In this document: one piece after another, positions 8,300 to 40,520 of the stretch
How the letters are laid out: the number at the start of each line of letters is the position of its first letter
Position numbering within the stretch: position 1 is the first letter of the stretch
IMG/VR virus record: IMGVR_UViG_3300032421_000005
Span: 1-46,454 of that record
Reading direction: 5' to 3' (one strand)
Length of the DNA stretch: 46,454 nucleotides
Source of the DNA: a virus
Program-made: the position numbers and the translations under genes
Notes under the pieces: model-generated
Told to the model about the DNA's origin: nothing
The model's input: only the letters and a program-made list of their open reading frames with translations
The model's database searches: none

Positions 8300-9205
8300 C
8301 TAAGAACCCGGAGTGCCGTAAATGCCTCTCCAGTCTGTCCATCCAACGCTGTATCTTTCGTATGCTTTATATTTCAAATTGGATGAATCGAAGTCCTCGT
8401 CCTGAGCAAACTCGGCTTCCTCGCGCTGGAACAGCTTGAGACCGTCTTCGACATCGGTACGGATGAAGAAGGCGTCGGTGTCGGTCAGGTAATGATTGAC
8501 CTTCACGCCATCCGGGAACATCCCCATCGACTTCAGCACATTGATCGCGTTGTTTGCGCTGTCGTTCTGGAGCGTGGACTTCAGGATCCGGGCCGCCTCG
8601 AACTGGAGGTTGACCGGGATAATCAACGAACGCGGCGTGATCGAGATCTTCATGCCGCGCGAGTTGGTCGCAGTGCCGATCTGGATGCAGAGGTCTTCAA
8701 GCGAAGCCTCCGAGAGATCGGCCGCCGTGGCCAGGATGTTCGACTGGTTGCCGCTCAGCGAGGGATGCGCCGTCGAGAGCATACACACGCCATCTGCACC
8801 CGTGTAAGAGCTGTTGAAGCCGCGATTGTACAGGTTCGCGACCACATTCTCCTTGGTCTGGCGCATGGAGAAGCCCAGCGAGCCGGTGCGCTGCATGCCC
8901 ACCTTCTCGTAGAGATTATCCTTGATCGCCTCGCGGGTGATGATGAAGCCGAGCGAATAGGCGATATGCGTGTAGCGGGACGTTACGCCCTGCGTCATGT
9001 CGTCATACTGCGTCGCCTGCCCCTGCGGCTTGATCGGGGCGAGACCGAAGCCGGTCATCTCCTGATCTTCCTCGTAGGCGCGTTCGGAACTCTCGATCGA
9101 GACGAGATCGGTGTATTCCTTGGCGTGCTCGGTATATTTGGCGCCCCAGCGGGCGTTCAGGCCCGGCCAGAGCAGCTTGGCGATTTGTCCGGTTGTGATC
9201 GTCAT
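8300..9205 (-). CDS. Major capsid protein, 301 aa (probably HK97-fold)
   Basis: About 33 kDa; position after scaffold and decoration genes; ATG at 9205. The long antisense ORF 8492..9865 is typical of a strongly coding high-GC gene. Confidence 0.8.
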   Translation of the reverse strand: MTITTGQIAKLLWPGLNARWGAKYTEHAKEYTDLVSIESSERAYEEDQEMTGFGLAPIKPQGQATQYDDMTQGVTSRYTHIAYSLGFIITREAIKDNLYEKVGMQRTGSLGFSMRQTKENVVANLYNRGFNSSYTGADGVCMLSTAHPSLSGNQSNILATAADLSEASLEDLCIQIGTATNSRGMKISITPRSLIIPVNLQFEAARILKSTLQNDSANNAINVLKSMGMFPDGVKVNHYLTDTDAFFIRTDVEDGLKLFQREEAEFAQDEDFDSSNLKYKAYERYSVGWTDWRGIYGTPGS

Positions 9206-11578: not shown

Positions 11579-11801
11579 GATTCAACTCCACCCCATAGAA
11601 ATTCGCGACCGCATCAGACCCCAGCTCCGCCATCTGCCCCAGCAAGTCCGCCTGCGCCTGGAGGTACGGCGTTGTCGGCTCCCCCGAGGCCCACGCCATC
11701 GCTAGGCGGAGCTGGTAATCCTTGAGGTACTGGCGGAACGCCTGCGTCTCCGGGCGGGACACCCACGCCGCCATCGCCTCCGGGTTGCTCAACAGGTTCA
11801 C
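11568..11801 (-). CDS. Hypothetical protein, 77 aa, overlapping the portal 3-prime end out of frame
   Basis: GTG at 11801 with GGAGGA 5 nt upstream. Balanced composition (MNLLSNPEAMAAWVSRPETQAFRQYLKDYQLRLAMAWASGEPTTPYLQ...). Confidence 0.6.
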   Translation of the reverse strand: MNLLSNPEAMAAWVSRPETQAFRQYLKDYQLRLAMAWASGEPTTPYLQAQADLLGQMAELGSDAVANFYGVELNHEQ

Positions 11802-13704
11802 CGTTATCCTCCATGTCTGCTGCGTCGGTGCCGAGCCGCACGGCGGCGGCCGCCAATGTCGCCGTGTCGTTCAGCATGTTCATCGTGAATGCGCTCGCCG
11901 CGGCGCCCATGAGCGCCTGCGCCGCCGAAGCGTTGTCCTTGCGGATCTGCGCCTTGGCCTTGTCGCGCTCGTTCGCCTGCTTCGCGCTGTCGAGCAGCAG
12001 CTTTGGATCGGGCTGCGGCGGCGGCACCTTCATCAGCTCGTCGATATTGTTCTGCCCCGTACCCTCGAAATAGCGGCGGCGAAGTTCCGGCTGGTTGGTG
12101 AGCGGATCGTCTCTCCAGATCATCAGCGCTTCGGCTTTCATCGCCTTCTGCGCGTCGTTGATCATCGTCGGGTCCGAAACCGGCACGACGTCGATGTCTT
12201 TCTCCTGATAATCCGCGCGGCCGATCTCGCCGGGCTTGTCCGTCAGCGCGAAATAGGACTGCTCGTCGAGGAAATCGCGGTTTAGGTTGAACAGGATGCG
12301 CAATTCCTGGCCGAATGAGCGATGGATGCGCTTGAAGATCGCGGTCATGACCTTCGTGGCCTGCTCTATCTGGGCAAGCACGGTCGTCGCCGGCGTGTTC
12401 ACGCCCTGCCCCGCGCCGGTCAGGATGTCCTGAACCGATGTGATCTCCTTCGCCGCGCCGATCAGCATTTCGAGCAGGCTCATCAGCACCGCTGACGGGC
12501 CTGGCAGGTTGAGCGGCACGATGTTGTCTCGCAGCGTCCCGCCGCCGACTATAACCTTCTTCCATTCGCCCAGCTTGAAGCGCATGTCGCCCGACTTCAT
12601 GTCGATGCCCGAGCCGACAAAGCCGCCCTGCGCGTTCTGAAGCGCGCCCGCGTCGAGAAGCTGGTTGATCGTGGTGTCGATCGCCGCCGTGATGTCGTCG
12701 AGCAGATGCCCGAAGCCGATGTCGTAGAACGAACCATCCGGACTAGGGATGAACCCATATTTCACGAAATAGAGCTTGCGGTCGATCCGAACGACGGTCT
12801 TGTCCTGCATGTTCATCGTGACGCCATCGGCATCGAAGCATGGCACGATCCGAACGACAGCACCGCTCTCGCGCACCATCGTCACAATATAGGGCTCTGG
12901 ATAGCCGTCCTCGTCGAGATCAAGGCGGCAATGCTGCTCCAGGAACTCGATCGGAGCCGTATCGCTCTGGTCCTTCTCGGTCTGCGTGACCGGTAGCGGC
13001 ACCTCGCGCCAGATTTCGGTCCTAAACCGCTCCTCCGCCTCGTGCGGGTAGAGCCTGAGGATATGCGTGAAGCGCGGCGCGTCCTCGATGCTCGACGCCC
13101 AATAGTTGATGACGAAATCCTTGCCCGTCACCATCCGGGACACGTTCTTGCGCTGGATCTGGTCGTAATAGGTCTTGCGGAACACACAGCCCACGATCGG
13201 CAGCATCAGCAGCAGCCGGTCGGTGTCCTCCTCCCAGCCCGGCATGTCGTAGAGCAGCTGCCACGTCATGTGATCGCCGATGCGCTCGGCCCGCTGGCGC
13301 TTCATGCCCTGCGGGTCAGGGCCTAGGACGCGGCCTTTGACGAGGTTCGAACCATCGACGATGACGGGATAGGATCGTGCCTGGAACTGGATGCTCGCCG
13401 TGGTCAGCAACGGCCACTTGACGTTCGATGCGTTGGGCCACGGAAAGCTCTTGGCCTTGCGGACCTGCATCGCCACGTCGAGATAGCGGTCGTAGCGCTG
13501 TTCCCAGCTCTGGCCCTCGTCGTTGCTCTTGCGACTTGCAAGGTCATTCTCGAACTCGCGCAGGCAATGCTGACCGATCTTCGTGACTTCGCCATCCGGC
13601 AGGATGTCGAGGACGTTGTTGGCCTGGAGGATTTGATCGACCGTGAGCGCGCGCGTCTCGTCGATCGCGTCGGGCTCGTCGTCAGCGAATTGGATGGCTG
13701 GCAT
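11614..13704 (-). CDS. Portal protein, 696 aa
   Basis: Size; position between the terminase and scaffold genes. ATG at 13704 (TGATG overlap). Last ~60 aa are Gly/Pro/Ala low-complexity. Confidence 0.8.
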   Translation of the reverse strand: MPAIQFADDEPDAIDETRALTVDQILQANNVLDILPDGEVTKIGQHCLREFENDLASRKSNDEGQSWEQRYDRYLDVAMQVRKAKSFPWPNASNVKWPLLTTASIQFQARSYPVIVDGSNLVKGRVLGPDPQGMKRQRAERIGDHMTWQLLYDMPGWEEDTDRLLLMLPIVGCVFRKTYYDQIQRKNVSRMVTGKDFVINYWASSIEDAPRFTHILRLYPHEAEERFRTEIWREVPLPVTQTEKDQSDTAPIEFLEQHCRLDLDEDGYPEPYIVTMVRESGAVVRIVPCFDADGVTMNMQDKTVVRIDRKLYFVKYGFIPSPDGSFYDIGFGHLLDDITAAIDTTINQLLDAGALQNAQGGFVGSGIDMKSGDMRFKLGEWKKVIVGGGTLRDNIVPLNLPGPSAVLMSLLEMLIGAAKEITSVQDILTGAGQGVNTPATTVLAQIEQATKVMTAIFKRIHRSFGQELRILFNLNRDFLDEQSYFALTDKPGEIGRADYQEKDIDVVPVSDPTMINDAQKAMKAEALMIWRDDPLTNQPELRRRYFEGTGQNNIDELMKVPPPQPDPKLLLDSAKQANERDKAKAQIRKDNASAAQALMGAAASAFTMNMLNDTATLAAAAVRLGTDAADMEDNGEPVEQPGGDGGVGVPPGDAGVPPVPQGLPAPPSDGVGLGGADNAVPPGAGGLAGADGGAGV

Positions 13705-14015
13705 CACTGAACCGCCATCTCTGTGGCCTGCGCCATCATTGCGCCGACCTTCAAGGCGCCGAACTCCTTCATCGCCACGCGCATGCACCAGTCCAGTTGC
13801 TCGATGCGCTCTGCCAACACCTCAAGTGCTTCGCTTCGCGTCCACTGAAAGCCGAGTGACCACCGTTCGCCGTCGCGGTCGAATGAGGCTGTGCACTGCC
13901 CCTGCTTGCCCTTGAGCCAGCTAGTCCAAACGTAGCCGCTCCGCTTCGCGAGGTTGTCAGCCCCCTCTTTCGCGAACTTGAGTTGATCACGAATATAACT
14001 CTCGGCGCTCTGCAT
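13704..14015 (-). CDS. Hypothetical protein between terminase and portal, 103 aa
   Basis: ATG at 14015, 2 nt after the terL stop. MQSAESYIRDQLKFAKEGADNLAKRSGYVWTSWLKGK...; the upstream part of the track ORF is Arg-rich filler. Confidence 0.65.
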   Translation of the reverse strand: MQSAESYIRDQLKFAKEGADNLAKRSGYVWTSWLKGKQGQCTASFDRDGERWSLGFQWTRSEALEVLAERIEQLDWCMRVAMKEFGALKVGAMMAQATEMAVQ

Positions 14016-14017
14016 GA

Positions 14018-15313
14018 TCAGTACCCCGTCCTCGTATCCCGCCCATCGTCGCGGTAATCGTCTTCGTATTCGTCGTTTTCGTATGGCTGCTCGTAGGCGA
14101 TGCACATGAGACCGAAGGCGTCTGCCGCGTGCGATGCCCAATCATGTTCTGGACCGAGGCCGATGTTGCGCTTCTCGTCCTTCTTCTCGTGATACCAACC
14201 CAAGGCATCGATGCCGCCCTGCGTGGTAGCCTCGTTGAAGTAGATCGACGGGAACAGCCGGCGCGCGGCTTCAATGCGCTTCATCGCGGCCGCCTTGCCC
14301 TGGTTCCTTACGACCCGCGTATCAAACCCAGCTTGGCGGACGTGATCGTCGAACTGAATCGCGGTGAAGTGATTTGTGTTTGAGCCGTCGTGCGGGAGGA
14401 CACAGAGAGCGCGGCTATAGCCTCGATCACGCAACCACGTGAGATGAGCACCAAGCGGCTGCCCGACAGCCTCGTAATAGTCGATGACGCGGATCTGCGT
14501 ACCGACGAACTGCGCGACCCATATCGCTGTGGCGTCGCGCGTGCCGATGTCCCAGAAGGCGCGATATTGCATCAGCGGGTCGGCAGCGACGCGGCCTATG
14601 CGCCCGTCACCCTTCGCCAGCGCGAGCTGCTGCGCATAATACGCGCCTTCCGAGATGGTGACATAGCCACCCTCCCAGATGTGGTCGTACTGATCGGGCT
14701 GCTGGCGGAGGCAATCCTGGCGCTCCTGCTCAAGCTCGGCCGTGAACCAAGGGTTATCGCGCCAGTTGGCATGAACCACGATTGCGCCGGTCGGGATTTC
14801 AGCCCCGCGCAGCATTACATCAACAGGATCAGTCTTCCGCCGAGCGTTCCAGCTCGCCCATATTTCAGAACCCGGAGCGCGGAGTGTCGGGCGAAGCATG
14901 TTGAGCGAGGTGGCGCTGATCGCCTGCGCCTCTTCCATCCACGCCCGTTTGAAGCCCTCCAGCGACTTGATGCTGTCGGCCGTGTAGTCCTGCATCCCCT
15001 TGAAGATGATCACGCCATCACCAGGCGTCTGGATCAACTCCTTGAACACCTTGAAGCCGTCGGCCTCGCCAATGCCAAGCTGGACTAGCTTCGATTCAAT
15101 CAGCCGCTTCGAGGACTGCTGTAGATCCTTCTGGATTTCACGGATGCAGACCGACAGAAGCCCTTTTTCGTACAAGCTGTCGTCGATCAGTTTCTCTGCG
15201 AAAAAATGGGATTTGCCCGAACCGCGCCCACCCCAAGCGCCCTTGTAACGCGCCGGCTGTAACAGCGGCTCGAACACCCTTGCGGTGGGGATCTGAAGCG
15301 CGGCCGACGCCAT
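14018..15313 (-). CDS. terL: Terminase large subunit, 431 aa (PBSX/Terminase_3-like)
   Basis: Walker A GGRGSGKS; ...AWMEEAQ... Walker B region; C-terminal nuclease-type region with conserved acidic residues; TGATG coupling with the upstream small gene. Confidence 0.9.
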   Translation of the reverse strand: MASAALQIPTARVFEPLLQPARYKGAWGGRGSGKSHFFAEKLIDDSLYEKGLLSVCIREIQKDLQQSSKRLIESKLVQLGIGEADGFKVFKELIQTPGDGVIIFKGMQDYTADSIKSLEGFKRAWMEEAQAISATSLNMLRPTLRAPGSEIWASWNARRKTDPVDVMLRGAEIPTGAIVVHANWRDNPWFTAELEQERQDCLRQQPDQYDHIWEGGYVTISEGAYYAQQLALAKGDGRIGRVAADPLMQYRAFWDIGTRDATAIWVAQFVGTQIRVIDYYEAVGQPLGAHLTWLRDRGYSRALCVLPHDGSNTNHFTAIQFDDHVRQAGFDTRVVRNQGKAAAMKRIEAARRLFPSIYFNEATTQGGIDALGWYHEKKDEKRNIGLGPEHDWASHAADAFGLMCIAYEQPYENDEYEDDYRDDGRDTRTGY

Positions 15314-16160: not shown

Positions 16161-18293
16161 TTACGAGGGCCATTTGAGCACCCGCAGACCCATTGATTTG
16201 GCCTTTCGATCGAACATTTCGGAGCCGATCATTTCAGTATGGAACCACCGATCCATGGCGTCCTTCGCGGTGCTTTTTGAGAGCCCATATTCGCGCTGGA
16301 TGAAGGCCCCGAGGAACCTGTCCGCTGTTTGTGATGAGGCGCTGAACGGGCGTCCTGCGGTCCACCGTTCATGGATCTTGTTAAGACAATCCAGGGCTTG
16401 GGCCTCTGTCATCTGGCCGGTCGTTTGCTTGACCCGCTGCGCGGTTGCGGAGCGGTCCTCTAGAAGCCCGCTCTCGGCTCGCACGTAAGTGTGAACCTCC
16501 CAGTCATGCTCGTCATTGGCCTTGACCACAGCACCGTTGACGACGGCCTTCGGCTTATGGGGGATGCCCAATTCTTGGCACAGGCGCTTCGCCTGGTCCT
16601 CTCCAGCGTTCCACAGGGCATAGGTTGCCCTGGCGCCGTCTATGAGCGCGGTAGAGCCGCGGATCGCCTCTCTGGCGCTATCAGCGCTGTCGATCTTGGA
16701 CATGCCCTCCTTGCGCATATGGTGGCACGCAATGACGGTCGCCCCTGTCGCCGCGCAAATCTGGGCGAAGCAACTCCACATGAACTGACCGGCTGCCGGG
16801 TCCTTCGTGATGTCCGCGGTGACGAAGGCTTGAAGTGGATCGATAATGAGGAGTTTGAGATCCGGGATGGTTTTAAGCTGTTCGATCAAGGCTTCGAATC
16901 GGGGTGTCTTTTTGAACTCCCCCTTATCCCCGGTGATGAGCGGCATGGGGCCGCCCACCTCGGGGAGCGGTACGATAAAAACCTTCCCATTAGCCCGCTC
17001 GCGCCGGTTATCAGGATCGATACGCTCGAGGCGCCGGTGGATGCTATCCCGGCTATCTTCTGCGTTGAGGACCACCACACTCCCATGGGAAACCACTTCG
17101 CCACCAAGAACCCGACGAGCGTTGTAGTCTCCAAATGCCACCGCCGCGGCGATCTCGAGGGCAAGGTCGAGCGCTATAAAGCTCTTCCCCACCCCACCCA
17201 TGGCAGCGAAGAGGGCTGGCACGCCTTGGGGGATCGTATTCTCGCAAAGCCATTGAATGGGCGGGGCTGATCCCATGAAGCGATCAGTGCTCCATTCTCT
17301 GAGATCGAAGCCCAGCACTTGGATGGACGCGGAGGAAATCGCCGGGGCGGCACTTTCTGCAAACCCCAGCATATGCTCGAGATCCAATCCCTCTTCACAA
17401 GCGTCGGCAGCGTCCCAACCAGATTCGACATCGGAAGGCGGGGTAAAGATTGTAACGCTGGCGGCGACATCGGAAAGCGCTAGAGCAAGCCGGCCCGCGA
17501 ACTCTTGGCCAGGTCCATCGGCATCCGGCCAGATAATGACATCGCGCCTCGAGAGAGGGGAGAGGTCGGTTTTTTCTAGGGGAGAGTTTGCGCCTCCCAT
17601 GACGGACGTTGCGCAAAGGCCGCGGTCTATGAGAGCCTTCGCGCTCTTCTCGCCTTCGCAGAAGATGACGCGCTCAGATTGCAGGACGCCAGGGATATTA
17701 TAGAGGGGGCGGATCTCCGGATTGCCATAGCGGCGCTGCACTGCATCCCACGGAAGAAATTCCTTTCCCCCGTCCTCGGGCTCGAACCGATAAACGCTGG
17801 CAATGATATGCCCGTCAGCGTCGGTGTAATGCCACTCCCCTTTTTGTGGCCCGAGATCACGATCAACCTTTTTCGCCTTCGCAAACAACTGCTGCCGGCT
17901 GTACGCAATGTCGGGCTTCGTCCCGTTCCCCAGCCATTCCGCCAACTCCTCGAGCGCGATCGGGAAGGTTCGGCGCTTCGCGGCCATGTAGAGGCCGATT
18001 AGGTCGCCGCCCTTTTGGTTGGGGTCACCGAAATCTTTCCATAGCCCTGCCTTGGAGCCGGCTGTCTCTATGAGGAGGCTTGTTCCGGCATCACCATCCG
18101 TATTCCCAATGCGCGCCTGGGTGCGGCTGAAGAGTGCGGCCGGGAATAGCCACGCGATGAAATGGGGAGCGCTACCCGCCAAGCCCTCCCGGATGCGGTC
18201 GATACGCCCCGCGTCCGGCTTCTCATCGAGGCCGAGATAAGTCTCGAGCTGGCGCTGCGTCAGCGCGTTGTTGAAATCAAGCACTGACGCCAT
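16161..18293 (-). CDS. Bifunctional primase-helicase (Toprim domain + RepA/DnaB-like P-loop ATPase), 710 aa
   Basis: Toprim VIFCEGEKSAKAL...IIWPDADGPGQEFA; P-loop AAMGGVGKSFIALDLA; Walker B LLIIDPL. ATG at 18293 with GGGGG upstream. Confidence 0.85.
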   Translation of the reverse strand: MASVLDFNNALTQRQLETYLGLDEKPDAGRIDRIREGLAGSAPHFIAWLFPAALFSRTQARIGNTDGDAGTSLLIETAGSKAGLWKDFGDPNQKGGDLIGLYMAAKRRTFPIALEELAEWLGNGTKPDIAYSRQQLFAKAKKVDRDLGPQKGEWHYTDADGHIIASVYRFEPEDGGKEFLPWDAVQRRYGNPEIRPLYNIPGVLQSERVIFCEGEKSAKALIDRGLCATSVMGGANSPLEKTDLSPLSRRDVIIWPDADGPGQEFAGRLALALSDVAASVTIFTPPSDVESGWDAADACEEGLDLEHMLGFAESAAPAISSASIQVLGFDLREWSTDRFMGSAPPIQWLCENTIPQGVPALFAAMGGVGKSFIALDLALEIAAAVAFGDYNARRVLGGEVVSHGSVVVLNAEDSRDSIHRRLERIDPDNRRERANGKVFIVPLPEVGGPMPLITGDKGEFKKTPRFEALIEQLKTIPDLKLLIIDPLQAFVTADITKDPAAGQFMWSCFAQICAATGATVIACHHMRKEGMSKIDSADSAREAIRGSTALIDGARATYALWNAGEDQAKRLCQELGIPHKPKAVVNGAVVKANDEHDWEVHTYVRAESGLLEDRSATAQRVKQTTGQMTEAQALDCLNKIHERWTAGRPFSASSQTADRFLGAFIQREYGLSKSTAKDAMDRWFHTEMIGSEMFDRKAKSMGLRVLKWPS

Positions 18294-19032
18294 TGCTTTG
18301 CCCCCAGCAACGATTGTGGAAGTCGCACCACCGGCATTCGAAGAAGTCGGCGGATGCGTGCGCACGAGGTGGGAGCGCGCCGGCATCGTGGGCATTCAGA
18401 ACCGCGACCCCCCGGTCGCTTGCCGTCTGCGCCAGCTTGGTGTTGAACGGGACGCGCTCGAAAGCCGTCTCGAGCGTATCGCGATTGGTGACCTGGAAGA
18501 GAGCGGCGTTTTCTTCCAGCCCCATATATGCCTGATAGATGGCAATCTGGGCTGCGTAGACTGGCCGCTCGAGCGCAACGCCTTTCTTGACGATCGCGGT
18601 CCAGTATTTTCCGCCGACGAATTTGTGCTCCCAGAGATATGGGTATGGGCCAAGATCAGCAGGCCCGCCACATACAACCCCGTCAATATGACCCTTTATG
18701 CGATCCCCAGCGACGCTGAAGCCGAACTGGCCCCCGTGGCGGTCATGAGTACGAAGGTCGAGGCCGGCAGCGATAAGCAGCTTTGCCTGTCGTTCCTCCA
18801 TGAAGTGGCCAGACGCAAAAATCAGATGCGTCTTGGCCGTCATCGGCCGCTCTCGCGGAGCCCCCTGGTATTCGAACAACAGCTTGCGCTGGCATATTTC
18901 GCCGAGCCGTGAGCCCCCGAGATAGGTGCGTTGTTCGCGAGCGCCTTCGATGGTGGCTGCGGCAAGGTCAAGAAGATCGGTTCCGGGGACCCCAGCCTTT
19001 CCTTTCGTCGCCCCATGATTGAAATCCATCAT
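18277..19032 (-). CDS. Cas4/RecB-like PD-(D/E)XK exonuclease with C-terminal Cys cluster, 251 aa
   Basis: GHIDGVV...LWEHKFV (D..ExK) and C-terminal ECRWCDFHNRCW. ATG at 19032 (ATGA overlap). Confidence 0.8.
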   Translation of the reverse strand: MMDFNHGATKGKAGVPGTDLLDLAAATIEGAREQRTYLGGSRLGEICQRKLLFEYQGAPRERPMTAKTHLIFASGHFMEERQAKLLIAAGLDLRTHDRHGGQFGFSVAGDRIKGHIDGVVCGGPADLGPYPYLWEHKFVGGKYWTAIVKKGVALERPVYAAQIAIYQAYMGLEENAALFQVTNRDTLETAFERVPFNTKLAQTASDRGVAVLNAHDAGALPPRAHASADFFECRWCDFHNRCWGQSNGVSA

Positions 19033-20139: not shown

Positions 20140-20711
20140 GTCGGCACCGCTGAAGGTGCCTTTGCGGCTGGAGCGGTGAAGCCGGTCTGTGGGGCAGAGC
20201 CGCCAGCCTTCGCCTCCGCATAGGAGGGCTGCTCGACGCCAACTGCACCAAGCAACTTATTCTTGTCGGGGTATCCCTCGGAGCCTTTCTCGATCCCGAT
20301 TTTCCCGACGAACTCGAGGCCGGAAAAGTCCCCATAGCCGGTGACCATGCGCGCCTGCTTCGCAGCGGGGCTTTCATCGTCCCCACGAATTCCACGGGCG
20401 CTCTCCAAAATAGCGCGCAGGGTCGAACGCGTAATGTTGCCGGCTTTCGAAGCGCCGCCTTCGTCGACCTTGCCACCGCTGACCACCATATTCTGCCAGA
20501 TCTTCCGGCCGCGGTATTTGCCAGCGGTCACAGCAAATTCGACGTTGAGGTACGACACGTCGCTAGTTTTGGAGGCGGTCAACCAGCCACCATCCCCTGC
20601 TGCGCCAGGGCGGATAGTAAGGATCATGGGGGCGACGGTGCCCGCCGGGATCAGATCGAAACTGCCACCCTTGTCAGCGGTGTTGTAATCGAAAGGATTT
20701 GATGCGTTCAT
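20127..20711 (-). CDS. DUF669-like phage protein (SSB-like partner of Sak4-type recombinases), 194 aa
   Basis: ATGA-coupled downstream of the AAA_24 gene; ...FDLIPAGTVAPMILTIRPG...YLNVEFAVTAGKYRGRKIW pattern. Family from memory. Confidence 0.7.
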   Translation of the reverse strand: MNASNPFDYNTADKGGSFDLIPAGTVAPMILTIRPGAAGDGGWLTASKTSDVSYLNVEFAVTAGKYRGRKIWQNMVVSGGKVDEGGASKAGNITRSTLRAILESARGIRGDDESPAAKQARMVTGYGDFSGLEFVGKIGIEKGSEGYPDKNKLLGAVGVEQPSYAEAKAGGSAPQTGFTAPAAKAPSAVPTWAQ

Positions 20712-21571
20712 TGTACTTGCTCCTGCTGTGTGGTGGGGGCGTCCGCGTCGGGGCTCGGAGTGTGGAAGCTAAGGCGCTCCGACGCGGGCTTTTTCGGCCC
20801 TGTGATCTTGGACATCAGCCGGCCAAGATGCGGCTCTTCAATTAGATCGAGGCGTCCGCTGCGATCCTTTGCGGGGTAGCCCCACGGGTTGACAGCGTGG
20901 CAGACGAACGCGCGATAAGGCGCGCCCTCTTCCGGCTGCATCTGGACCATGGAGATTAGCTGGTCGGTGATGCCCGGCGCCTCGAGCGCGGTCTTACTGC
21001 CCTCGATTTGCATGACGTTGGAGATGCGGCCGAAGTCGTCCTTGACGGCGTTGAGGAGCCCAACGAGCCACACGTTTACACGCGGGGCATGCTGGAACTG
21101 CTTCAGCCATTCGACCATTTCCCGACCCAACAGACCATATGCCCCTCGGGTATCGGGCTTGCCGGTCTTCTCCGACATCGCCTCGGGCTGAACCCGCGAC
21201 CATGCGAAACAGAGACGGGACGCCTCAGTGATGGAGTCGATAAAGACCGTCTCATATTTATCAAGGCCGCCCAAAATGTCCTTGGCGGCCTGATAGTGGC
21301 CAGGCCCATAGACGTCCGCTTCCGCATAGCCGGGGTTCGGACCACCGACGAGTACGGCGAGGTTCCGAGCCTCGCTCCAAGTCCGGAGACGGACCATATC
21401 GCCGGGCCAGTCCTGGACGCTCAGCTCTCCAGCTTCGGCATTGACGAAGAGAGTTGTGGCTGGATCGAGCGTGTGGAGAAGGCTGGTCTTCCCGATCCCA
21501 GCCGGTCCCAAAAGAATACCCTTGATGCCGGCGCGGTTTTGGAGCCGCTCGTCTGCACTGATGATCTTCAT
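20708..21571 (-). CDS. Sak4-like AAA_24 ATPase (RecA-superfamily annealing/recombination protein), 287 aa
   Basis: Walker A GILLGPAGIGKTSLL. ATG at 21571 with AAGGAG 8 nt upstream and ATGA overlap; the track start 21580 is a GTG abutting the SD. Confidence 0.8.
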   Translation of the reverse strand: MKIISADERLQNRAGIKGILLGPAGIGKTSLLHTLDPATTLFVNAEAGELSVQDWPGDMVRLRTWSEARNLAVLVGGPNPGYAEADVYGPGHYQAAKDILGGLDKYETVFIDSITEASRLCFAWSRVQPEAMSEKTGKPDTRGAYGLLGREMVEWLKQFQHAPRVNVWLVGLLNAVKDDFGRISNVMQIEGSKTALEAPGITDQLISMVQMQPEEGAPYRAFVCHAVNPWGYPAKDRSGRLDLIEEPHLGRLMSKITGPKKPASERLSFHTPSPDADAPTTQQEQVQ

Positions 21572-22041
21572 GCCGCGCACTCCTTAAGCGGGGAAAGCGC
21601 ATAGGTCGGCTTCCCTGTTTTGACGGTGCGAGCGACAGAAAGTGCGTCGCGAAGAGCAGGCGGAGCCGCTTCGAACTTCCGCTCCTCCACAGAGAACACA
21701 GCCTTGGCAAAGTGCTTGGCGTCGTCTGGGTCTAGGGCGTTCAAAGCAGCCTTCAGCTTCTCTTGATCCCATTCGATCTTTTTGGGGAGATTGACGACAA
21801 CGTCATATTCTCCGTCGATCACATGAACCGAGCCAGTGTCTTTACCAGCAAGGCGCCTTTCCTCCGCCGCCTTGTCGGCATAGCGCCGCTCAAAAGTGCC
21901 ATGCAGAGCTACTTCGCGCCGAGTTAGCGTCAGCTTGTCCTGCGCTAGGAGCCAATGAAGATCCGCCAGCACTCCAGGCGGCAATTGGTCGAGCTGGCTT
22001 GGTTCCAGACCATCCAGCATCGAAGTTGTGACATTGTCCAT
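21568..22041 (-). CDS. Hypothetical replication/recombination-module protein, 157 aa
   Basis: ATG at 22041 with AAGGA upstream; coupled to the Sak4-like gene. Confidence 0.75.
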   Translation of the reverse strand: MDNVTTSMLDGLEPSQLDQLPPGVLADLHWLLAQDKLTLTRREVALHGTFERRYADKAAEERRLAGKDTGSVHVIDGEYDVVVNLPKKIEWDQEKLKAALNALDPDDAKHFAKAVFSVEERKFEAAPPALRDALSVARTVKTGKPTYALSPLKECAA

Positions 22042-25340: not shown

Positions 25341-25364
25341 AGCCGCCTCCGGGCGGCTTTTTTT
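25341..25364 (+). terminator. Rho-independent terminator of the repressor operon
   Basis: AGCCGCC-TCCG-GGCGGCT followed by a run of 7 T that begins at the last stem base. Confidence 0.85.
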
Positions 25365-25431
25365 GTGCCTGGCGCGGTCGGCGCGGGGGTGAGTCGGGAT
25401 AAAAATGTTTGTTGAAGTCTCATTTAGGAGC

Positions 25432-25779: not shown

Positions 25780-25881
25780 ATGCCCCGAGTAATCATCATG
25801 CGAGACGCGGTGATCGCTGCTGCGGTTGCCTTCGCGCCGGTGGTGTTCGTGATCGTCATGCTTCTGGCGGTGGGCAAATGA
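25780..25881 (+). CDS. Single-pass membrane micro-protein, 33 aa (not in track)
   Basis: AAGGAG 8 nt upstream of ATG 25780. MPRVIIMRDAVIAAAVAFAPVVFVIVMLLAVGK; TGA overlaps the ATG of 25878. Confidence 0.55.
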   Translation: MPRVIIMRDAVIAAAVAFAPVVFVIVMLLAVGK

Positions 25882-26399
25882 GCGCGTCCACGCCCGGGCC
25901 ATGGAGCACGAACGGCTGCGGCATAAACGCCGGTGGACGCTCGATTGCTATCGCCTGCCCCAATCCGAAGGCGGACGATGGGTCCATGCGGGCCAATGCC
26001 CGGCTTATCACGCTCTCGACAGTCATTCCCGATCTTTACGCCAGCGAGATCAACGCAACGATCGAGTGGTTCTGGGATGGCGGCTTTGAGGTCGCGATCG
26101 GCGACGATATGAACGGTTGGTGCAGCAGAGGCAACTGCGACACTTGGGTTGAAGCTCTCGAATGGCTTCAGGATGCCGCGATTGCCGCTTGGCCGGATAG
26201 CGCCTTTGCCAAGGCCCGCGCCGCCATAGCGAAAGCTGCTGTGGGCTTGGAGATGGCTCTGCCTGAAGAGCCGTCTGACGCCGTGATCCGTGCCGTTGAC
26301 AAGGCTGCCCACGAGCATTGGCCTAACGCCAAGCAGATGGCCATCGGCATGTACAAGGTCATCCGAGAAGCCGCCATCGCGAAAGCGCCCGGACAATGA
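25878..26399 (+). CDS. Hypothetical protein, 173 aa
   Basis: ATGA-coupled on both sides; balanced composition. Confidence 0.75.
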   Translation: MSASTPGPWSTNGCGINAGGRSIAIACPNPKADDGSMRANARLITLSTVIPDLYASEINATIEWFWDGGFEVAIGDDMNGWCSRGNCDTWVEALEWLQDAAIAAWPDSAFAKARAAIAKAAVGLEMALPEEPSDAVIRAVDKAAHEHWPNAKQMAIGMYKVIREAAIAKAPGQ

Positions 26400-26575
26400 G
26401 CGAGGCCGATCCCGTGTGGGTGGCTGAGCAGGTCCTCACGCATATTCGAGGCATGGCGAATTGGGGTGAGGCTCAAAGCGAGCCTGCATATCTAAAGAAC
26501 GTCCTGAGCAGCATTCGTCAAGAAGCCGCCGACGCGCTGGTTTACCTAGCCCATCTCAAGGAAAACCAGAAATGA
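26396..26575 (+). CDS. Hypothetical protein, 59 aa (not in track)
   Basis: ATGA overlaps at both ends. MSEADPVWVAEQVLTHIRGMANWGEAQSEPAYLKNVLSSIRQEAADALVYLAHLKENQK. Confidence 0.6.
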   Translation: MSEADPVWVAEQVLTHIRGMANWGEAQSEPAYLKNVLSSIRQEAADALVYLAHLKENQK

Positions 26576-26754
26576 CCGACATCTGCCAGGAGTGTCTCGG
26601 AAGGCGCGGCTTCTACAGCGACACCGGACCCGCGCCGCGCTGGGAGGTCTGTGATTACTGCTCCGGTGCGGGCAGCTTCGAAGAGTTGGTGCCCAACATG
26701 TCCCGCATCGAAGCGGCGAAGCATGTTGAGCTGATGACGGAGAAAGCAGCGTGA
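26572..26754 (+). CDS. DnaJ-type zinc-finger micro-protein, 60 aa
   Basis: Two CxxCxGxG-like motifs: CQECLGRRG and CDYCSGAG. Confidence 0.7.
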   Translation: MTDICQECLGRRGFYSDTGPAPRWEVCDYCSGAGSFEELVPNMSRIEAAKHVELMTEKAA

Positions 26755-26915
26755 TGGGCTGGCCTCAGATCACTATCATCGCACTGACTGCAATGTCGGT
26801 CGGGATTTCGGCCGCAAAGGAAGGTGAGCCCCGCGGCAATCATAGCACCATCGGGGCGCTCATCGGTGCCGCCATCCAGTGCACTATCCTCTATTTTGGA
26901 GGCTTCTTCGGATGA
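26754..26915 (+). CDS. Two-TM membrane micro-protein, 53 aa (not in track)
   Basis: ATG 26754 (TGATG overlap). MGWPQITIIALTAMSVGISAAKEGEPRGNHSTIGALIGAAIQCTILYFGGFFG. Confidence 0.55.
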   Translation: MGWPQITIIALTAMSVGISAAKEGEPRGNHSTIGALIGAAIQCTILYFGGFFG

Positions 26916-27040
26916 CCACCCCAATCGAAGCGCTGCTGTCGGCAACCGGCCCAGCAACCCAATGGCTAGAGGATAACGCCGAAGCCATCGACCGCGCTTT
27001 CGCGGAGATGGAAGCGGAAGATGAGGAGGAAATGCGGTGA
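26912..27040 (+). CDS. Acidic micro-protein, 42 aa (not in track)
   Basis: ATGA overlap upstream, GTGA overlap with the HD gene. MTTPIEALLSATGPATQWLEDNAEAIDRAFAEMEAEDEEEMR. Confidence 0.45.
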   Translation: MTTPIEALLSATGPATQWLEDNAEAIDRAFAEMEAEDEEEMR

Positions 27041-27513
27041 GCGAAATATGGGAAGCGCGCGATTTCGCTATCAGGGCGCACGGGGATCAGAAGTACGGCG
27101 GAGAGCCTTACGGGGTCCACTTGTTTGATGTCGCCGGAATCGTCCATGAGTTCGGCTATTCCAATGATCACCGCAAAGCCGCGTTCCTCCATGATGTTCT
27201 GGAGGACACCGCCACTACGTCAGATCAGATCCTCGATTTATTCGGCGAGAATGTCTTGCGGCTCGTATTCGCTTGCACTGGAGAGGGTGAGAGCCGAGCG
27301 GAGCGCAACAATTCGATCTACCGCAAGATCGTGGAGTATCCGCCGGCCGCCCCTGTCAAGCTGGCCGATCGCATCGCCAATGTAGAAGCGGCCACACCGG
27401 GCTGTCATCACTGGCGACGCTACAAGGCGGAGATGCCGCAATTCCGAGCGGTTATACGCCCGCACGTGCCGGACCAGATGTGGGATCGGCTTGAAGGGAG
27501 CTTCCGCCCATGA
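27037..27513 (+). CDS. Single-domain HD (RelA/SpoT-hydrolase-like) protein; small alarmone hydrolase candidate, 158 aa
   Basis: FAIRAHGDQKYGGEPYGVHLFDVAGIV...AAFLHDVLEDT...KLADRIANV matches the (p)ppGpp-hydrolase HD fold signature as I recall it. Confidence 0.8.
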   Translation: MSEIWEARDFAIRAHGDQKYGGEPYGVHLFDVAGIVHEFGYSNDHRKAAFLHDVLEDTATTSDQILDLFGENVLRLVFACTGEGESRAERNNSIYRKIVEYPPAAPVKLADRIANVEAATPGCHHWRRYKAEMPQFRAVIRPHVPDQMWDRLEGSFRP

Positions 27514-27576
27514 CCCCCACCGCGATCCAGCGCCTGTTCGATCAGGAAGCAGCTGCGGAAACGAAGGAATGGTGAA

Positions 27577-28617: not shown

Positions 28618-28820
28618 TGGCCTTCCGTGGCGCAAAGTCTCAGGTCAAGAACCAGTCGCGCAAAGGCGTCACTGGTTTGGCCAGCACTCCCGCTTTCGTG
28701 GTCCGATCGCTCGGCCTTCTCGATCCGGCCGACGCCTCTGAGCCTGTGAACCGAAAGCAGCGTCGCGCGCAACGCAAGGGTCTAGTGCCTGCTGAGCGCG
28801 TCAAGAAGGAGCGGGCGTGA
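28614..28820 (+). CDS. Basic hypothetical protein, 68 aa
   Basis: ATGA-coupled; Lys/Arg-rich. Confidence 0.6.
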   Translation: MMAFRGAKSQVKNQSRKGVTGLASTPAFVVRSLGLLDPADASEPVNRKQRRAQRKGLVPAERVKKERA

Positions 28821-29146
28821 TGGGGGCTGAGCTTCTGAGCGCAGACGAGGCGGCTGCGTGCCTCCACATCTGCGAGCGGACCTTGCGCAAGCTGCGGAAG
28901 GAGGGCTTGATCCCCTATGTTGCGATCACCGACCGGAAGTTCCTCTACCGGCGCGAGGATTGCGACGCCTATCTCGAATCGCGCCTGCGCAAGGATGAAC
29001 CGTGTCCGTCTATAAAACCGACAAGTCCCCGTACTGGCAGTACGATTTCCAGCGCACCAAGGTCCGGTTTCATGGCAGCACGGGCTGCACGTCGAAACGC
29101 GACGCAGAAGCCTTCGAGGCCCGCATCAAGCGCGAGGTCGCTCTAG
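28817..29146 (+). CDS. xis: Excisionase-type (MerR/HTH_17-like) DNA-binding protein, 109-aa ORF whose last ~48 codons overlap int
   Basis: LLSADEAAACLHICERTLRKLRKEGLIPYVAITDRKFLYRREDCDAYL; AAGGAG upstream; directly precedes the integrase. Confidence 0.7.
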   Translation: MMGAELLSADEAAACLHICERTLRKLRKEGLIPYVAITDRKFLYRREDCDAYLESRLRKDEPCPSIKPTSPRTGSTISSAPRSGFMAARAARRNATQKPSRPASSARSL

Positions 29147-30131
29147 GCCATGCAGCCAAGCGCCCCATTACTCTGGATGCGGCCTGCCAGGCTTATTGGC
29201 AGGACAAGGGGCAGCACGAAAGCAGTTCCACCACGACCGACTATCAGCTCGCCAACCTGTGTGAAGGCATCGGAGCCGGGAAGTTGCTGAGCGCGATCGG
29301 AACAGAGGATTTCAGGCGCTACATCGCCAAGCGCCGCGCCACGGTGAGCAACGCCAGCGTCAATCGTGAATGGCAGCTCGCGCGCCGTGTCTGGAAGCAC
29401 GCTGCGGCGGCGGGATACGATCTGCCGATCCCCGGAACGCCCGACGCGATCGACTGGAGCAAGCTGCGCCTGGACGAACCCAAGGAGCGCGTGCGCGAGC
29501 TTTCTCCAGACGAGGAGAAGCGGCTGTTCGAACACCTGCCGGACAGCCTCAAGCCGGTGGTGGAGTTCGCCGCTCTATCCGGCCAGCGCCGCAGTTCGGT
29601 GATCGGGCTCGAATGGGATAAGATCGATTGGGACGGATGCCGCGCCACGATCACACAGAAGGGCGACAAGGAGCACACCTTCCCTCTCACACCGCGCATG
29701 GTCGAGCTATTGCGCGAGCAGCCACACGTGGAGGGTTGCGACTTCGTATTCACCTATGTCTGCGAGCGCCCCTCCCCAGCCCGTAAGGATCGTCCCCGGC
29801 GTTACAAGGGCACGCGCTACCCATTCAGCCCCCAGGGATGGATGCGGAAGTGGCGGAAGGCCCTCACCGATGCGAAGATCAAAAACTTCAAGTTCCACGA
29901 TCTACGCCACACCCGAGGCACGCGGGTGCTACGCGCGACGGGCAACCTCAAGGTCGTCCAGAAGCTCCTTGGGCATACCGACATCGCCACCACCGCCCGC
30001 TATGCCCACGCGCTTGAGGACGATATTCGCGCCGCGATGGTTGAAACAGAATCCCGGAATAGTACCGGGAAGAAGTTGACAGCACCCCGCAGAACCCGCA
30101 GAATCTCTAAGTCAAAAGAGGACATAGCATG

Positions 30132-30132
<1 letters not shown>
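29002..30132 (+). CDS. int: Tyrosine integrase, 376 aa
   Basis: HDLRHTRGT...LLGHTDIATTARYAH (H-x-x-R ... Y catalytic box). N-terminal SPYWQYDF...G.R arm-type region. GTG 29002 with AAGGA upstream. Confidence 0.9.
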
Positions 30133-30183
<51 letters not shown>

Positions 30184-30344
30184 ATTTCCGCCAGTTTCAG
30201 GAGCTTCCCGCCAGTCCGTCCGCGAACAATTGCGGTACGCAACAGAGCGGTACGGAGCAATTCCGGACGGTAAGTCCCAGAATAGTCCCGGGCGATGTTC
30301 AGGAGTCGTTCCCGGAGGGGCATACGGCCGAAAGCTGGGCGGCG

Positions 30345-30716
30345 ATGGTTCGCGCATCAGAGGCGCTTGATTGGGGTGGGCCGTCAGTTCCACTCTACCC
30401 GGACAAAGCGGAGCCCGGCGACCCGGTACACTACCAAAAGCCCGGCACGATATATTTCATCGGCGGCGATACCGGCGCGATCAAGATCGGCTTCACCACA
30501 ACGCTAGATGTCCGTCTGCGGCGGCTGCGTGCGAACTCCCCGATTCCGCTAGGCGTTCTCGCCAGCAAACAGGGCGTCGCATGGGATGAGCGGGCTTATC
30601 ACTTGCTCTTCCAGCGCCACCGCCTCCACGGCGAATGGTTCGCCCGTGCCCCGGAAATTCTCGCTGAGATTGACCGCATATCCCCCACCGCTTTCAGGAA
30701 GGGGGCTTCGGAATGA
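30345..30716 (+). CDS. T5orf172/MUG113-type (GIY-YIG-related) domain protein, about 123 aa
   Basis: GTIYFIGGDTGAIKIGFTTTLDVRLRRLRANSPIPLGVLA...ERAYHLLFQRHRLHGEWF. Start uncertain; the upstream part of track ORF 30129.. reads through the tRNA fragment. Confidence 0.7.
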   Translation: MVRASEALDWGGPSVPLYPDKAEPGDPVHYQKPGTIYFIGGDTGAIKIGFTTTLDVRLRRLRANSPIPLGVLASKQGVAWDERAYHLLFQRHRLHGEWFARAPEILAEIDRISPTAFRKGASE

Positions 30717-35962: not shown

Positions 35963-36156
35963 TGCCTAACCCGCGGGTGGCTAATGGCCAATGGACGGAA
36001 GCCGTAGGGCCTATCGCCGCCAAGCTGGAAGTGGGAGCGACTTTTGGAGAGCGCACCGTGTTCAACCGCGAAGGATCTAAAGCTCTTGCCGAGTTGCTGC
36101 GCGAAATGGCCCGTATCATCGACAACGAGATCGAGCATCGAAAGGTTTCCGAATGA
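35959..36156 (+). CDS. Hypothetical protein, 65 aa (74 aa if ATG 35932 is used)
   Basis: ATGA overlap at 35959; same frame as track ORF 35932..36156. Confidence 0.6.
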   Translation: MMPNPRVANGQWTEAVGPIAAKLEVGATFGERTVFNREGSKALAELLREMARIIDNEIEHRKVSE

Positions 36157-36851
36157 CCGCCCCCACCGAGCCCCGCGCCGTGCTGCAAAGCTGCCCGTTC
36201 TGCGGAGGTGAGCCGCATGTCCTTTCGCCCGTCTATGTCATGGGGGTCGATAGCGATGAGCCTGATTTATTCAGCGCGGGCTGTGTGAAGTGCCAGATAT
36301 GGCAGCGCCGGCCCACGAAAGACGACACCATCGCCGCATGGAACGCGCGAGCATCCGCAGAGCAAGCCGCCGGGGGGGTGGAGCGTGTAAGGGAGGCGTT
36401 GCATATCGCCCTGATCGGTAACGTCGGCAGCCTCGAAAAGCTCACTGAATGGGACAAGGGTTATCGAGCTTGTGCGACAGACCTCGCAACGGTTTTTACC
36501 GCAGCCCCACCCGCCCAGCCGTCACCCGTCGAAACTACGGTATCAAACCCTCCGCCAGATGATACTGAAAGCGGGTTGAGTATAAAGTCCGCCGATGTCG
36601 CGGCGAGGGCGCTTACCGAGGCGTTGCGTCCGTTCATGCCGATCGAGACGCGCGACGGCCCGGATTATGCCGAAGTGACATTCGGGGACCATAAGTCGCA
36701 AGCGATGACGATGGTGCCCGCCGACTGGAATAAACTAGCGGCGGCATATGAAGCCGTGCGGCGGGAGGTGGGAATGGGTGAGTGCCTGAGATGCGGCCGC
36801 TCGATCGGTGAGCATAGCTGGGACACTTGCTCTCGGTGGGATCCTGAGTAG
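36153..36851 (+). CDS. Lar-family (restriction-alleviation-type) zinc-ribbon protein with a long C-terminal extension, 232 aa
   Basis: N-terminus CPFCGGEPHV...AGCVKCQIWQRRPTKDDTIAAWNARA matches the Lar-like pattern. C-terminal CLRCGRSIGEHSWDTC. Confidence 0.7.
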   Translation: MTAPTEPRAVLQSCPFCGGEPHVLSPVYVMGVDSDEPDLFSAGCVKCQIWQRRPTKDDTIAAWNARASAEQAAGGVERVREALHIALIGNVGSLEKLTEWDKGYRACATDLATVFTAAPPAQPSPVETTVSNPPPDDTESGLSIKSADVAARALTEALRPFMPIETRDGPDYAEVTFGDHKSQAMTMVPADWNKLAAAYEAVRREVGMGECLRCGRSIGEHSWDTCSRWDPE

Positions 36852-39255: not shown

Positions 39256-39518
39256 TGACTGCCTCCTGTCGTCACCTTCGCCTGAGCCACGGCGTTGTCC
39301 TTCTTGCCGATCGCGAACACGCCGATGCCGGAAAGGGCTGCGAGCCCGCCGGGATAGGCGACGCACCACGCCGTCACGTCGAAATGCGCGCCGTTCATCG
39401 CCATGTCCCAAGCCTGGAAGCCGATCGGGCTCGTGATGGCTGCCAGGCCACTCGCGGCGAGCAGGACGCGGCCAATCTCGAACTCGCCCGAGATGCCGCG
39501 CAGGAAGTTGAAGGTCAC
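39252..39518 (-). CDS. Holin candidate (multi-TM), 88 aa
   Basis: Hydrophobic segments IGRVLLAASGLAAITSPIGF, WCVAYPGGLAAL and SGIGVFAIG; charged C-terminus; GTGA-coupled directly after the endolysin. Confidence 0.7.
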   Translation of the reverse strand: MTFNFLRGISGEFEIGRVLLAASGLAAITSPIGFQAWDMAMNGAHFDVTAWCVAYPGGLAALSGIGVFAIGKKDNAVAQAKVTTGGSQ

Positions 39519-40111
39519 AGCAGCACCTCTTTCGCCCGGGCAAGCTTCGCCATGCGATCCTCGATTCCGTTCGTGCCGCCGTTCACGGCGCGCGTTACCC
39601 GGGTAACGTCGTCAGCGTCGGCGGCGGCGTTGATGTGGTGCGAGCTCCAATAATCGCAGGCGATCAGGACTGAGGTAGCGGGCTCGGCTGCGAGCTCGGG
39701 ATTGGCTTCCAGATCCTCGCCGATACGATCGCCTACGGTGCGGTAGTTGGCGCGCCCAGTTAGCTGGAAACAGCCCCGTCCTTTGTAGCGATAGCCGTCC
39801 CCCGGGTACTTGTTGCCAAGGTCTGCGCGGCCCTCATATTTGCGCTGCGCCGCCGTCGGACCCCATATTTCCTCCATCCAGCGGAAGTTGCCCGTCTCGT
39901 GGGCGGCCTGGGCGATGAAGTGCGAAAGCCGCAGCGGCGTGTCGATCTCGTACCCGGGGAAGTGCGCTGCACACCCCTTGCCGAGCGGGATGCCCCTGTC
40001 CGCAAGTTGCCGGTTCGCGACATGGGTAAGGAGCGCCTGATAGGTGTACGGCCCCGCAACCCCGTCTGGCGTGACGCACAGCCGCTCTTGGATGGGGCGC
40101 CAGTCTATCAC
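39515..40111 (-). CDS. Endolysin, glycoside hydrolase family 19-like, with short N-terminal PG-binding-like segment, 198 aa
   Basis: AQAAHETGNF...YEGRADLGNKYPGDGYRYKGRGCFQLTGRANY. GTG 40111 (GTGA overlap with the upstream micro-ORF); track start 40207 is a TTG. Confidence 0.85.
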   Translation of the reverse strand: MIDWRPIQERLCVTPDGVAGPYTYQALLTHVANRQLADRGIPLGKGCAAHFPGYEIDTPLRLSHFIAQAAHETGNFRWMEEIWGPTAAQRKYEGRADLGNKYPGDGYRYKGRGCFQLTGRANYRTVGDRIGEDLEANPELAAEPATSVLIACDYWSSHHINAAADADDVTRVTRAVNGGTNGIEDRMAKLARAKEVLL

Positions 40112-40194
40112 CGCAGCCCCCACATCATCGGCTGATAACCAGCGTAGAGGAACGCGAGCCCAAGCAGCCCGCCGAGGAACAGGCAGAAGATCAT
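40108..40194 (-). CDS. Hydrophobic micro-protein, 28 aa (not in track); lysis accessory candidate
   Basis: ATGA overlap upstream, GTGA overlap with the endolysin. MIFCLFLGGLLGLAFLYAGYQPMMWGLR. Confidence 0.45.
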   Translation of the reverse strand: MIFCLFLGGLLGLAFLYAGYQPMMWGLR

Positions 40195-40520
40195 GGCGTG
40201 CCTCCAACCTTCTTTTCGATATCCGCGAGCCCTGCCCGGGTCTCCAAGCGGGCCTCGGAAACCACGCCCTGCATCGCCTTGCGAAGCTCCGGGATGCCGC
40301 TCGTGAACAGCGCGGTTTCGAGATGGCTGATCCGGTTGTCCTTGAGTTCGAGCTGATCCTTGAGCCATTCGACCGTGGTGCGCAGATCCGCGATCTGCTG
40401 GTGGCACGACTTGATCGCCGGTCGCATCACGAGGTTGCGGACGAATACCCACGTCCCGGTGCAAGCCGTCGCAAAGGCAGCCGCACGGCCTGCGGGATCT
40501 TCGGTTAGGTCCAAGCTCAT
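40191..40520 (-). CDS. Hypothetical protein with hydrophobic N-terminal segment and coiled-coil, 109 aa
   Basis: AAAFATACTGTWVFVRNLV followed by ...DLRTTVEWLKDQLELKDNRISHLE; ATGA-coupled. Confidence 0.65.
   Translation of the reverse strand: MSLDLTEDPAGRAAAFATACTGTWVFVRNLVMRPAIKSCHQQIADLRTTVEWLKDQLELKDNRISHLETALFTSGIPELRKAMQGVVSEARLETRAGLADIEKKVGGTP

Follow-up and report, generated by a model that had tools for sequence, protein, structure and literature searches.

The DNA considered here is a viral genome, IMG/VR record IMGVR_UViG_3300032421_000005, positions 1 to 46,454, and the window denotes this whole stretch of 46,454 nucleotides (nt). On its + strand, it encodes a protein of 158 amino acids (aa) that, judging from its sequence, motifs, predicted fold and domain architecture, is a bona fide stand-alone small alarmone hydrolase (SAH) of the RelA/SpoT homologue (RSH) superfamily. 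The reading that we favor, and that we consider probable, is that this SAH belongs to a complete temperate phage, that it would play an early anti-alarmone role, and that the three micro-genes coupled to it upstream are independent of it. We infer the substrate, timing and role of the enzyme from characterized relatives and from its place in the genome. An earlier note on this DNA, made from the sequence alone, is partly supported by the present analysis: it was right on the enzyme and on its phage origin, and its functional idea had already been published.

Identification of a Small Alarmone Hydrolase

The 158-aa protein matches the Pfam profile HD_4 (PF13328) with 49.4 bits for a cut-off of 27.2 (E=5.4e-13), phrog_990 (E=1.9e-30) and, over the N-terminal hydrolase part only, TIGR00691 spoT_relA (E=3.4e-16). 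Its Pfam hits are limited to HD_4 and HD. Synthetase, TGS and ACT domains are absent, which leaves a single-domain architecture. In a phmmer search of the PDB, the 22 matches out of 22 were RSH hydrolases, namely SpoT, Rel, MESH1, the Pseudomonas aeruginosa SAH, Corynebacterium glutamicum RelH and, more weakly, Aph1.

The catalytic machinery was examined in an alignment of 55 sequences, the window protein and 54 homologues. H15, Y20, Y25, H28, H52, D53, E56, K108, D111, R112 and N115 are invariant, and D57 is kept in at least 90% of the sequences. These conserved residues align with the metal ligands, the HD and ED dyads and the last-helix Asp/Asn of MESH1, Acinetobacter baumannii SpoT and Mycobacterium tuberculosis Rel. 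Indeed, the catalytic set of RelSeq (H53, H77-D78, E81-D82, D144 and N148) corresponds here to H28, H52-D53, E56-D57, D111 and N115. The position of RelSeq R44, before the GEPY motif, is occupied by K19, a conservative change, and K19 completes the predicted metal-binding and catalytic residues of the SAH.

An AlphaFold2 model calculated from the same alignment has 11 helices, with a pLDDT of 97.1 and a pTM of 0.92. When this model was compared with the PDB using Foldseek, the top 50 matches were all RSH hydrolases, with TM-scores of 0.86 for MESH1 and 0.80 for the P. aeruginosa SAH. A dNTPase or another HD family was also considered for the protein, and none was found among the Pfam, NCBIfam and PDB hits or the top 50 structural matches. 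The HD signature pointed out in the earlier note is borne out by direct reading of the open reading frame (ORF) and by a HD_4 score above its cut-off, a match that chance would not explain. Its attribution to the (p)ppGpp-hydrolase type of the RSH superfamily agrees with the profiles, the invariant catalytic residues and the structural matches of the predicted fold. The grouping with dNTPase-type HD proteins that the note had set against this attribution is not seen.

Relatives in Phages and Cells

Relatives of the SAH are found in 215 GenBank phage records and in at least 485 IMG/VR stretches. A large protein database holds about 20 SAH clusters at 64-81% identity and many more at 40-55%, and a scan of GTDB genomes gave a sole, distant match, in Hydrogenophilus (32% identity).

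Among GenBank phages, the nearest homologues are found in phiCbK-like Caulobacter phages, whose HD proteins show 44-46% identity at 93-94% coverage. Annotated as metal-dependent phosphohydrolases or as members of the SpoT/RelA family, they have the core and the C-terminal helices in common with the window SAH. However, their N-terminus is extended (203 aa in Karma) and they are encoded by lytic jumbo siphoviruses. No functional study of the phiCbK HD protein was found in a literature search. The closest characterized phage homologue is the SAH of Salmonella phage SSU5 (SSU5_099, PaSpo), likewise a stand-alone RSH hydrolase with the same catalytic motifs (57 bits, 36% identity over 130 aa). It differs from the window SAH by its length (213 aa), its C-terminal extension, its low identity and its origin in a plasmid-prophage of Enterobacteria. 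The SAH of phage PVP-SE1 (gp220, PbcSpo) is more distant (32 bits, 33% identity over 112 aa).

In a neighbor-joining tree of the catalytic core, the window family, the phiCbK-type protein and SSU5 PaSpo form a clade recovered in 100 of 100 bootstraps with only six reference sequences. This clade excludes PVP-SE1 PbcSpo, MESH1, SpoT and Rel. On these sequence grounds, a “PaSpo-like” identity is likely but not established for the window SAH. Pairwise PDB scores proved uninformative as a guide to the subfamily, SSU5 PaSpo itself scoring poorly against the P. aeruginosa SAH.

Several other known enzymes help to place the protein. Human and Drosophila MESH1 and the P. aeruginosa SAH (PA0431) are single-domain like the window SAH and have the same Mn2+ site, with about 30% identity. 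They are, however, cellular and not phage proteins; MESH1 is also an NADPH phosphatase, and the P. aeruginosa enzyme is involved in biofilm formation and in protection against Tas1. ATfaRel and PVP-SE1 gp220 are SAHs that neutralize toxSAS toxins (PMC7229694), but ATfaRel is encoded beside its own toxin, which is not the case for the window SAH. Aph1, the (p)ppApp hydrolase encoded by a temperate phage of Bacteroides caccae, is likewise an HD hydrolase from a temperate phage and acts on analogues of alarmones (PMC10083569). It belongs to another, shorter HD family (PDB 7smg; phmmer E=0.002, TM-score 0.71), and its gene lies directly downstream of that of the MuF-Apk2 toxin, whereas such a toxin is absent from the window.

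A Complete Temperate Phage Genome

The two ends of the contig carry an exact direct repeat of 127 bp (1-127 and 46328-46454). This repeat, the phage gene set and the presence of an integrase gene (int) with an attachment site (attP) argue that the window is the complete genome of a temperate phage, about 46.3 kb long and assembled as a circle, and the claim of the earlier note that the SAH is phage-encoded holds. Gene identities are from Pfam scans; the main features are the following.

8300-9205, - strand: major capsid protein
11614-13788, - strand: portal
14018-15313, - strand: large terminase
16161-18395, - strand: primase-helicase
20708-21580, - strand: AAA_24 protein
25341-25368, + strand: hairpin resembling an intrinsic terminator, with a 7 bp stem (6 GC pairs) and a T-run after it, located upstream of the SAH block and inside the operon that leads to int
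28817-29146, + strand: excisionase-like HTH_17 gene (xis; HTH_17 E=1.4e-10)
29002-30132, + strand: tyrosine integrase (int; Phage_integrase E=8e-28)
30133-30183, + strand: attP core, 3' part of tRNA-Pro(UGG) including CCA, directly past the int stop
39515-40207, - strand: GH19 endolysin

The tRNA-Pro fragment matches phage tRNA-Pro genes at 97-100% and no complete tRNA was found in the window; its position right after the int stop therefore identifies it as the attP core. An ORF at 30129-30716, with a T5orf172/MUG113 domain, overlaps this core, so its actual start is probably further downstream.

The SAH gene belongs to a + strand operon that runs from a divergent regulatory region (around 24150) to xis, int and attP. 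Because of this position, it is most likely expressed early after infection or induction. The hairpin at 25341-25368 suggests that the genes downstream of it are controlled by read-through or antitermination.

Loci of related SAHs were compared by tblastn with 12 window proteins as queries, over 93 viral loci (11 + 82). Only the SAH and the excisionase-like protein gave clear matches. Nine of these loci encode a SAH with 64-76% identity to that of the window. All nine are temperate-phage early regions and, in most of them, an integrase gene is found 0.2-3.5 kb downstream of the SAH gene. In 8 of the 9, the upstream gene and the SAH gene overlap by their stop and start codons (GTGA or ATGA). 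In contrast, this upstream gene varies, with mutually unrelated products of 159, 93, 193, 144, 113 (DUF3307-like), 80, 42 (basic, unrelated) and 372 aa. Across close relatives, the position and the coupling of the SAH gene are conserved, its neighbors are not.

The Coupled Micro-Genes

The four-ORF run to which the SAH gene belongs, at 26572-27513 on the + strand, was confirmed as real. It is composed as follows.

26572-26754, + strand: 60-aa ORF, carrying MTDICQECLGRRGF...CDYCSGAG (also CQECLGRRG)
26754-26915, + strand: 53-aa ORF from ATG; an alternative GTG start at 26751 gives 54 aa
26912-27040, + strand: 42-aa acidic ORF, 12 D+E versus 2 K+R
27037-27513, + strand: 158-aa SAH ORF with a GTG start, carrying RAHGDQKYGGEPYGVH and AAFLHDVLEDT

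The ORFs are joined through stop/start overlaps of 1 or 4 nt, the overlap sequences along the run being ATGA, GTGATG, ATGA and GTGA. Before each start, a Shine-Dalgarno-like GGAG or AAGGA is found at 7-12 nt, inside the preceding gene. GC content at third codon positions (GC3) exceeds that at second positions (GC2) in every ORF of the run, as in the long genes of the phage. Moreover, an independent metagenome gene caller, applied to a second copy of the contig (JGI metagenome 3300045391), gave identical genes of 59, 60, 53, 42 and 158 aa. The earlier note had described a coupled series ending with the HD gene. Its 1- or 4-nt overlaps are confirmed, but the series starts further upstream, at 25780, and coupling resumes past the HD gene after a gap of 63 nt. 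The upstream part of the block is as follows.

25780-26575, + strand: 33-, 173- (phrog_1273) and 59-aa genes, with 4-nt overlaps at 25878, 26396 and 26572

The 173-aa protein matches phrog_1273 with E=4.6e-8. Past the SAH gene, a possible 21-aa ORF (MTPTAIQRLFDQEAAAETKEW; 27510-27575, + strand) overlaps the SAH stop through ATGA and ends 1 nt before the next gene; it is absent from the set of the metagenome gene caller.

The 60-aa protein is mini zinc-finger-like, with four cysteines arranged as CxxCxGxxG...CxxCxGxG. With a coding-type GC3 of 0.79 and an SD-like AAGGA, its ORF is a real gene, but it is not a conserved neighbor of the SAH gene. The DnaJ central cysteine-rich domain was considered for this protein and rejected. 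Against DnaJ_CXXCXGXG (PF00684) it scores 14.8 bits for a cut-off of 32.7 and has two repeats instead of four, so that it resembles the motif without being a member, and the DnaJ-type label of the earlier note is not retained. Among 5.8e9 proteins, a single family of relatives was found (P0122), with 62% identity and all four cysteines kept. It is encoded in another temperate-phage early operon (locus L101, 4001-4216), near an acyltransferase-3 gene, and this operon contains no SAH, no relative of the 53-aa protein and no acidic peptide.

The 53-aa protein belongs to phrog_5479, which it matches over its full length (E=8e-15), residues 2-54 aligning with positions 1-53 of the 53-position profile. 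Using tblastn, homologues were found in 17 phage records, including Burkholderia phages Mica and BcepB1A, Xanthomonas FoX phages and a Rhizobium phage, in the company of replication or early genes. The homologue in Mica carries an annotation of two transmembrane (TM) domains, in agreement with the two-TM prediction of the earlier note. In the three contexts that were read, no SAH was found within 3 kb of these homologues. The phrog_5479 family is scattered over phages of Burkholderia, Xanthomonas, Rhizobium, Klebsiella and Escherichia, and some of its records are mislabelled “lysin” or “lytic murein transglycosylase”. Scans of IMG/VR with the 60- and 53-aa proteins gave no matches.

Finally, the 42-aa ORF is preceded by GGAGG, 9 nt upstream, and was called by the independent gene caller. 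Its product is as acidic as the note had stated, with 12 D/E and 2 K/R. No relative of this peptide was found by tblastn in any of the 93 SAH loci.

Could these micro-proteins form with the SAH a dedicated complex or cassette, for example a membrane-tethered or regulated hydrolase? The tight junctions (overlaps of 1 or 4 nt, with SD sequences inside the genes) and the calling of the same four genes on the second contig of the phage would fit such a complex, as would the mini zinc-finger ORF found in one related locus. This 63-aa CxxC...CxxC ORF lies 2.1 kb downstream of the SAH gene in L007 and gives a weak match to the 60-aa protein (E=0.005). It is the only match of the 60-, 53- or 42-aa proteins at E <= 0.1 in the 93 loci. 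It occupies positions 6612-6803 of L007 and reads CPKCLG...CRACEGTG. However, none of the three micro-proteins has a homologue adjoining a SAH in these loci, and the gene directly upstream of the SAH gene changes each time in the relatives with 64-76% identity. In addition, the 53-aa protein and the sole relative of the 60-aa protein occur in phages without a SAH nearby. Because the partners are absent from SAH loci and occur elsewhere without SAH, a dedicated complex is disfavored, and we regard it as very improbable. As for the overlaps, they concern 13 of the 21 junctions between same-strand genes called around the SAH, and those of the SAH run are no more than the background of this genome. 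Overlap being the default layout here, the coupling reflects a compact operon and not a dedicated complex. More generally, a stop/start overlap in a phage early operon should not be taken as evidence of functional partnership. The partnership proposed in the earlier note is therefore not upheld. As far as the compared sequences indicate, the early operon is a mosaic in which the micro-genes are accessory, rapidly exchanged and independent of the SAH.

Possible Role of the SAH During Infection

By analogy with MESH1, Rel and the P. aeruginosa SAH, Mn2+ would be held by H28, H52, D53 and D111, with the help of the E56-D57 pair. The enzyme would hydrolyze the 3'-pyrophosphate of (p)ppGpp and/or (p)ppApp, and might also remove a 3'-pyrophosphate from the CCA end of tRNA, as does the SAH of phage SSU5. 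Alarmone levels would be kept low and abortive-infection toxins of the toxSAS or CapRel type would be disarmed, so that host translation and replication would stay available to the phage.

Work on related phage enzymes gives substance to this scheme. The SAHs of SSU5 and PVP-SE1 neutralize all five toxSAS toxins tested, and SAHs were counted in 90 prophage regions in the same study, which proposed a counter-defense logic (Jimmy et al., PNAS 2020, PMC7229694). SSU5 PaSpo strips the tRNA modification made by FaRel2 (PMC11245113) and is in routine use to detoxify CapRel and FaRel2 (PMC9712102, PMC11245113). In a recent phage genome paper, the SAH of a Pakpunavirus is annotated along the same lines (PMC12846349). 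The erasure of stringent-response or toxSAS signals by a phage SAH, as put forward in the earlier note, is a published interpretation (PMC7229694) that is plausible here.

Several points weigh against the favored reading. The substrate and the role would be those of relatives, from which they are transposed to this SAH. Position 19 is a lysine where Rel and MESH1 carry an arginine. The hairpin at 25341-25368, together with the lack of a recognizable promoter, makes early expression of the SAH less certain. As to the micro-genes, the missing conserved neighbors disfavor an obligate complex, but a lineage-specific interaction may exist in this one phage. Finally, alarmones may be neither the sole nor the main substrate, since MESH1 is an NADPH phosphatase and binds PAPS (PDB titles), and bacterial SAHs can be promiscuous (PMC9765508).

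This last point leads to an alternative in which the main in vivo substrate would be another 3'- or 2'-phosphorylated nucleotide (NADPH, PAPS/pAp-like), the enzyme remodeling host metabolism instead of signaling. The best structural matches are indeed human MESH1 complexes with PAPS and NADPH, and an orphan bacterial SAH is metabolically promiscuous (PMC9765508). However, the catalytic and nucleotide-binding residues common to (p)ppGpp hydrolases are all invariant, and SSU5 PaSpo, the nearest characterized phage homologue, works on toxSAS products (PMC7229694, PMC11245113), so that we find this alternative unlikely while giving it some weight. The SAH could also serve as an antitoxin or immunity protein against a toxin of the same phage, a (p)ppApp/(p)ppGpp synthetase, on the model of ATfaRel or of Aph1 beside MuF-Apk. 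Such toxin/hydrolase pairs are known in temperate phages and toxin-antitoxin loci (PMC7229694, PMC10083569). Here, a RelA_SpoT synthetase or MuF domain is found by Pfam in none of 48 phage ORFs, including the genes beside the portal gene. A distance of 13 kb separates the SAH gene from those of the portal and head, and no synthetase neighbor occurs in the nine loci of close relatives. Given that no synthetase or MuF domain was found in the 48 ORFs or in these loci, the SAH is an orphan, not of the ATfaRel or Aph1 type, and the proposal is extremely improbable. The candidate of a type IV toxSAS antitoxin (ATfaRel-like) or Aph1-type immunity protein was rejected, there being no adjoining cognate toxin and the neighbors being small unrelated genes.

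Another possibility is that of a lysogenic-conversion gene, protecting the lysogen against incoming (p)ppApp-synthetase effectors, the Tas1-type toxins of the type VI secretion system, or against superinfecting elements that bear toxSAS. Its place near xis, int and attP, conserved in temperate relatives, is a typical accessory (moron) site, and protection against Tas1 by the P. aeruginosa SAH and Aph1 is described (PMC10083569; Steinchen 2021, as cited in PMC12846349). Yet no promoter-like site is seen for the SAH gene itself, which lies inside a long operon of coupled, co-directional genes, and strictly lytic jumbo phages (phiCbK) commonly carry homologues too, where lysogenic conversion is impossible; we hold this possibility to be improbable. 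We see similarly little likelihood in a SAH expressed by the prophage as a shield against (p)ppApp-making or tRNA-pyrophosphorylating toxins that competitors or rival phages deliver, with an upstream micro-protein of this particular phage, for example the two-TM member of phrog_5479, localizing or modulating it: nothing found here points to it.

The interest of this SAH is to be seen in a known framework. Phage SAHs are candidates for counter-defense against toxSAS/CapRel-type abortive infection and for suppression of the stringent response. Earlier publications already cover the concept, the experimental proof of principle and how abundant SAHs are in prophages, and the present SAH leaves this picture unchanged. 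It adds a well-defined SAH clade, found in temperate phages from high-GC metagenomes; phiCbK-like jumbo phages carry further relatives. Because its structural model is confident and its genomic position conserved, this clade is a convenient test case for substrate specificity.

Other Genes of the Phage

Some genes outside the SAH operon are also worth mentioning. The late/tail region encodes a GNAT acetyltransferase (1153-1701, - strand) and an Asp/Asn beta-hydroxylase-like protein (1611-2150, - strand), possibly morons or virion-modifying enzymes. At 36153-36851 on the + strand, the N-terminus of the encoded protein is similar to the Lar restriction-alleviation zinc ribbon, at a score below the Pfam cut-off (22.6 versus 28.6 bits). 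Finally, the gene next to that of the capsid (7435-8241, - strand) encodes a protein of 268 aa whose C-terminal part is an endonuclease VII domain.

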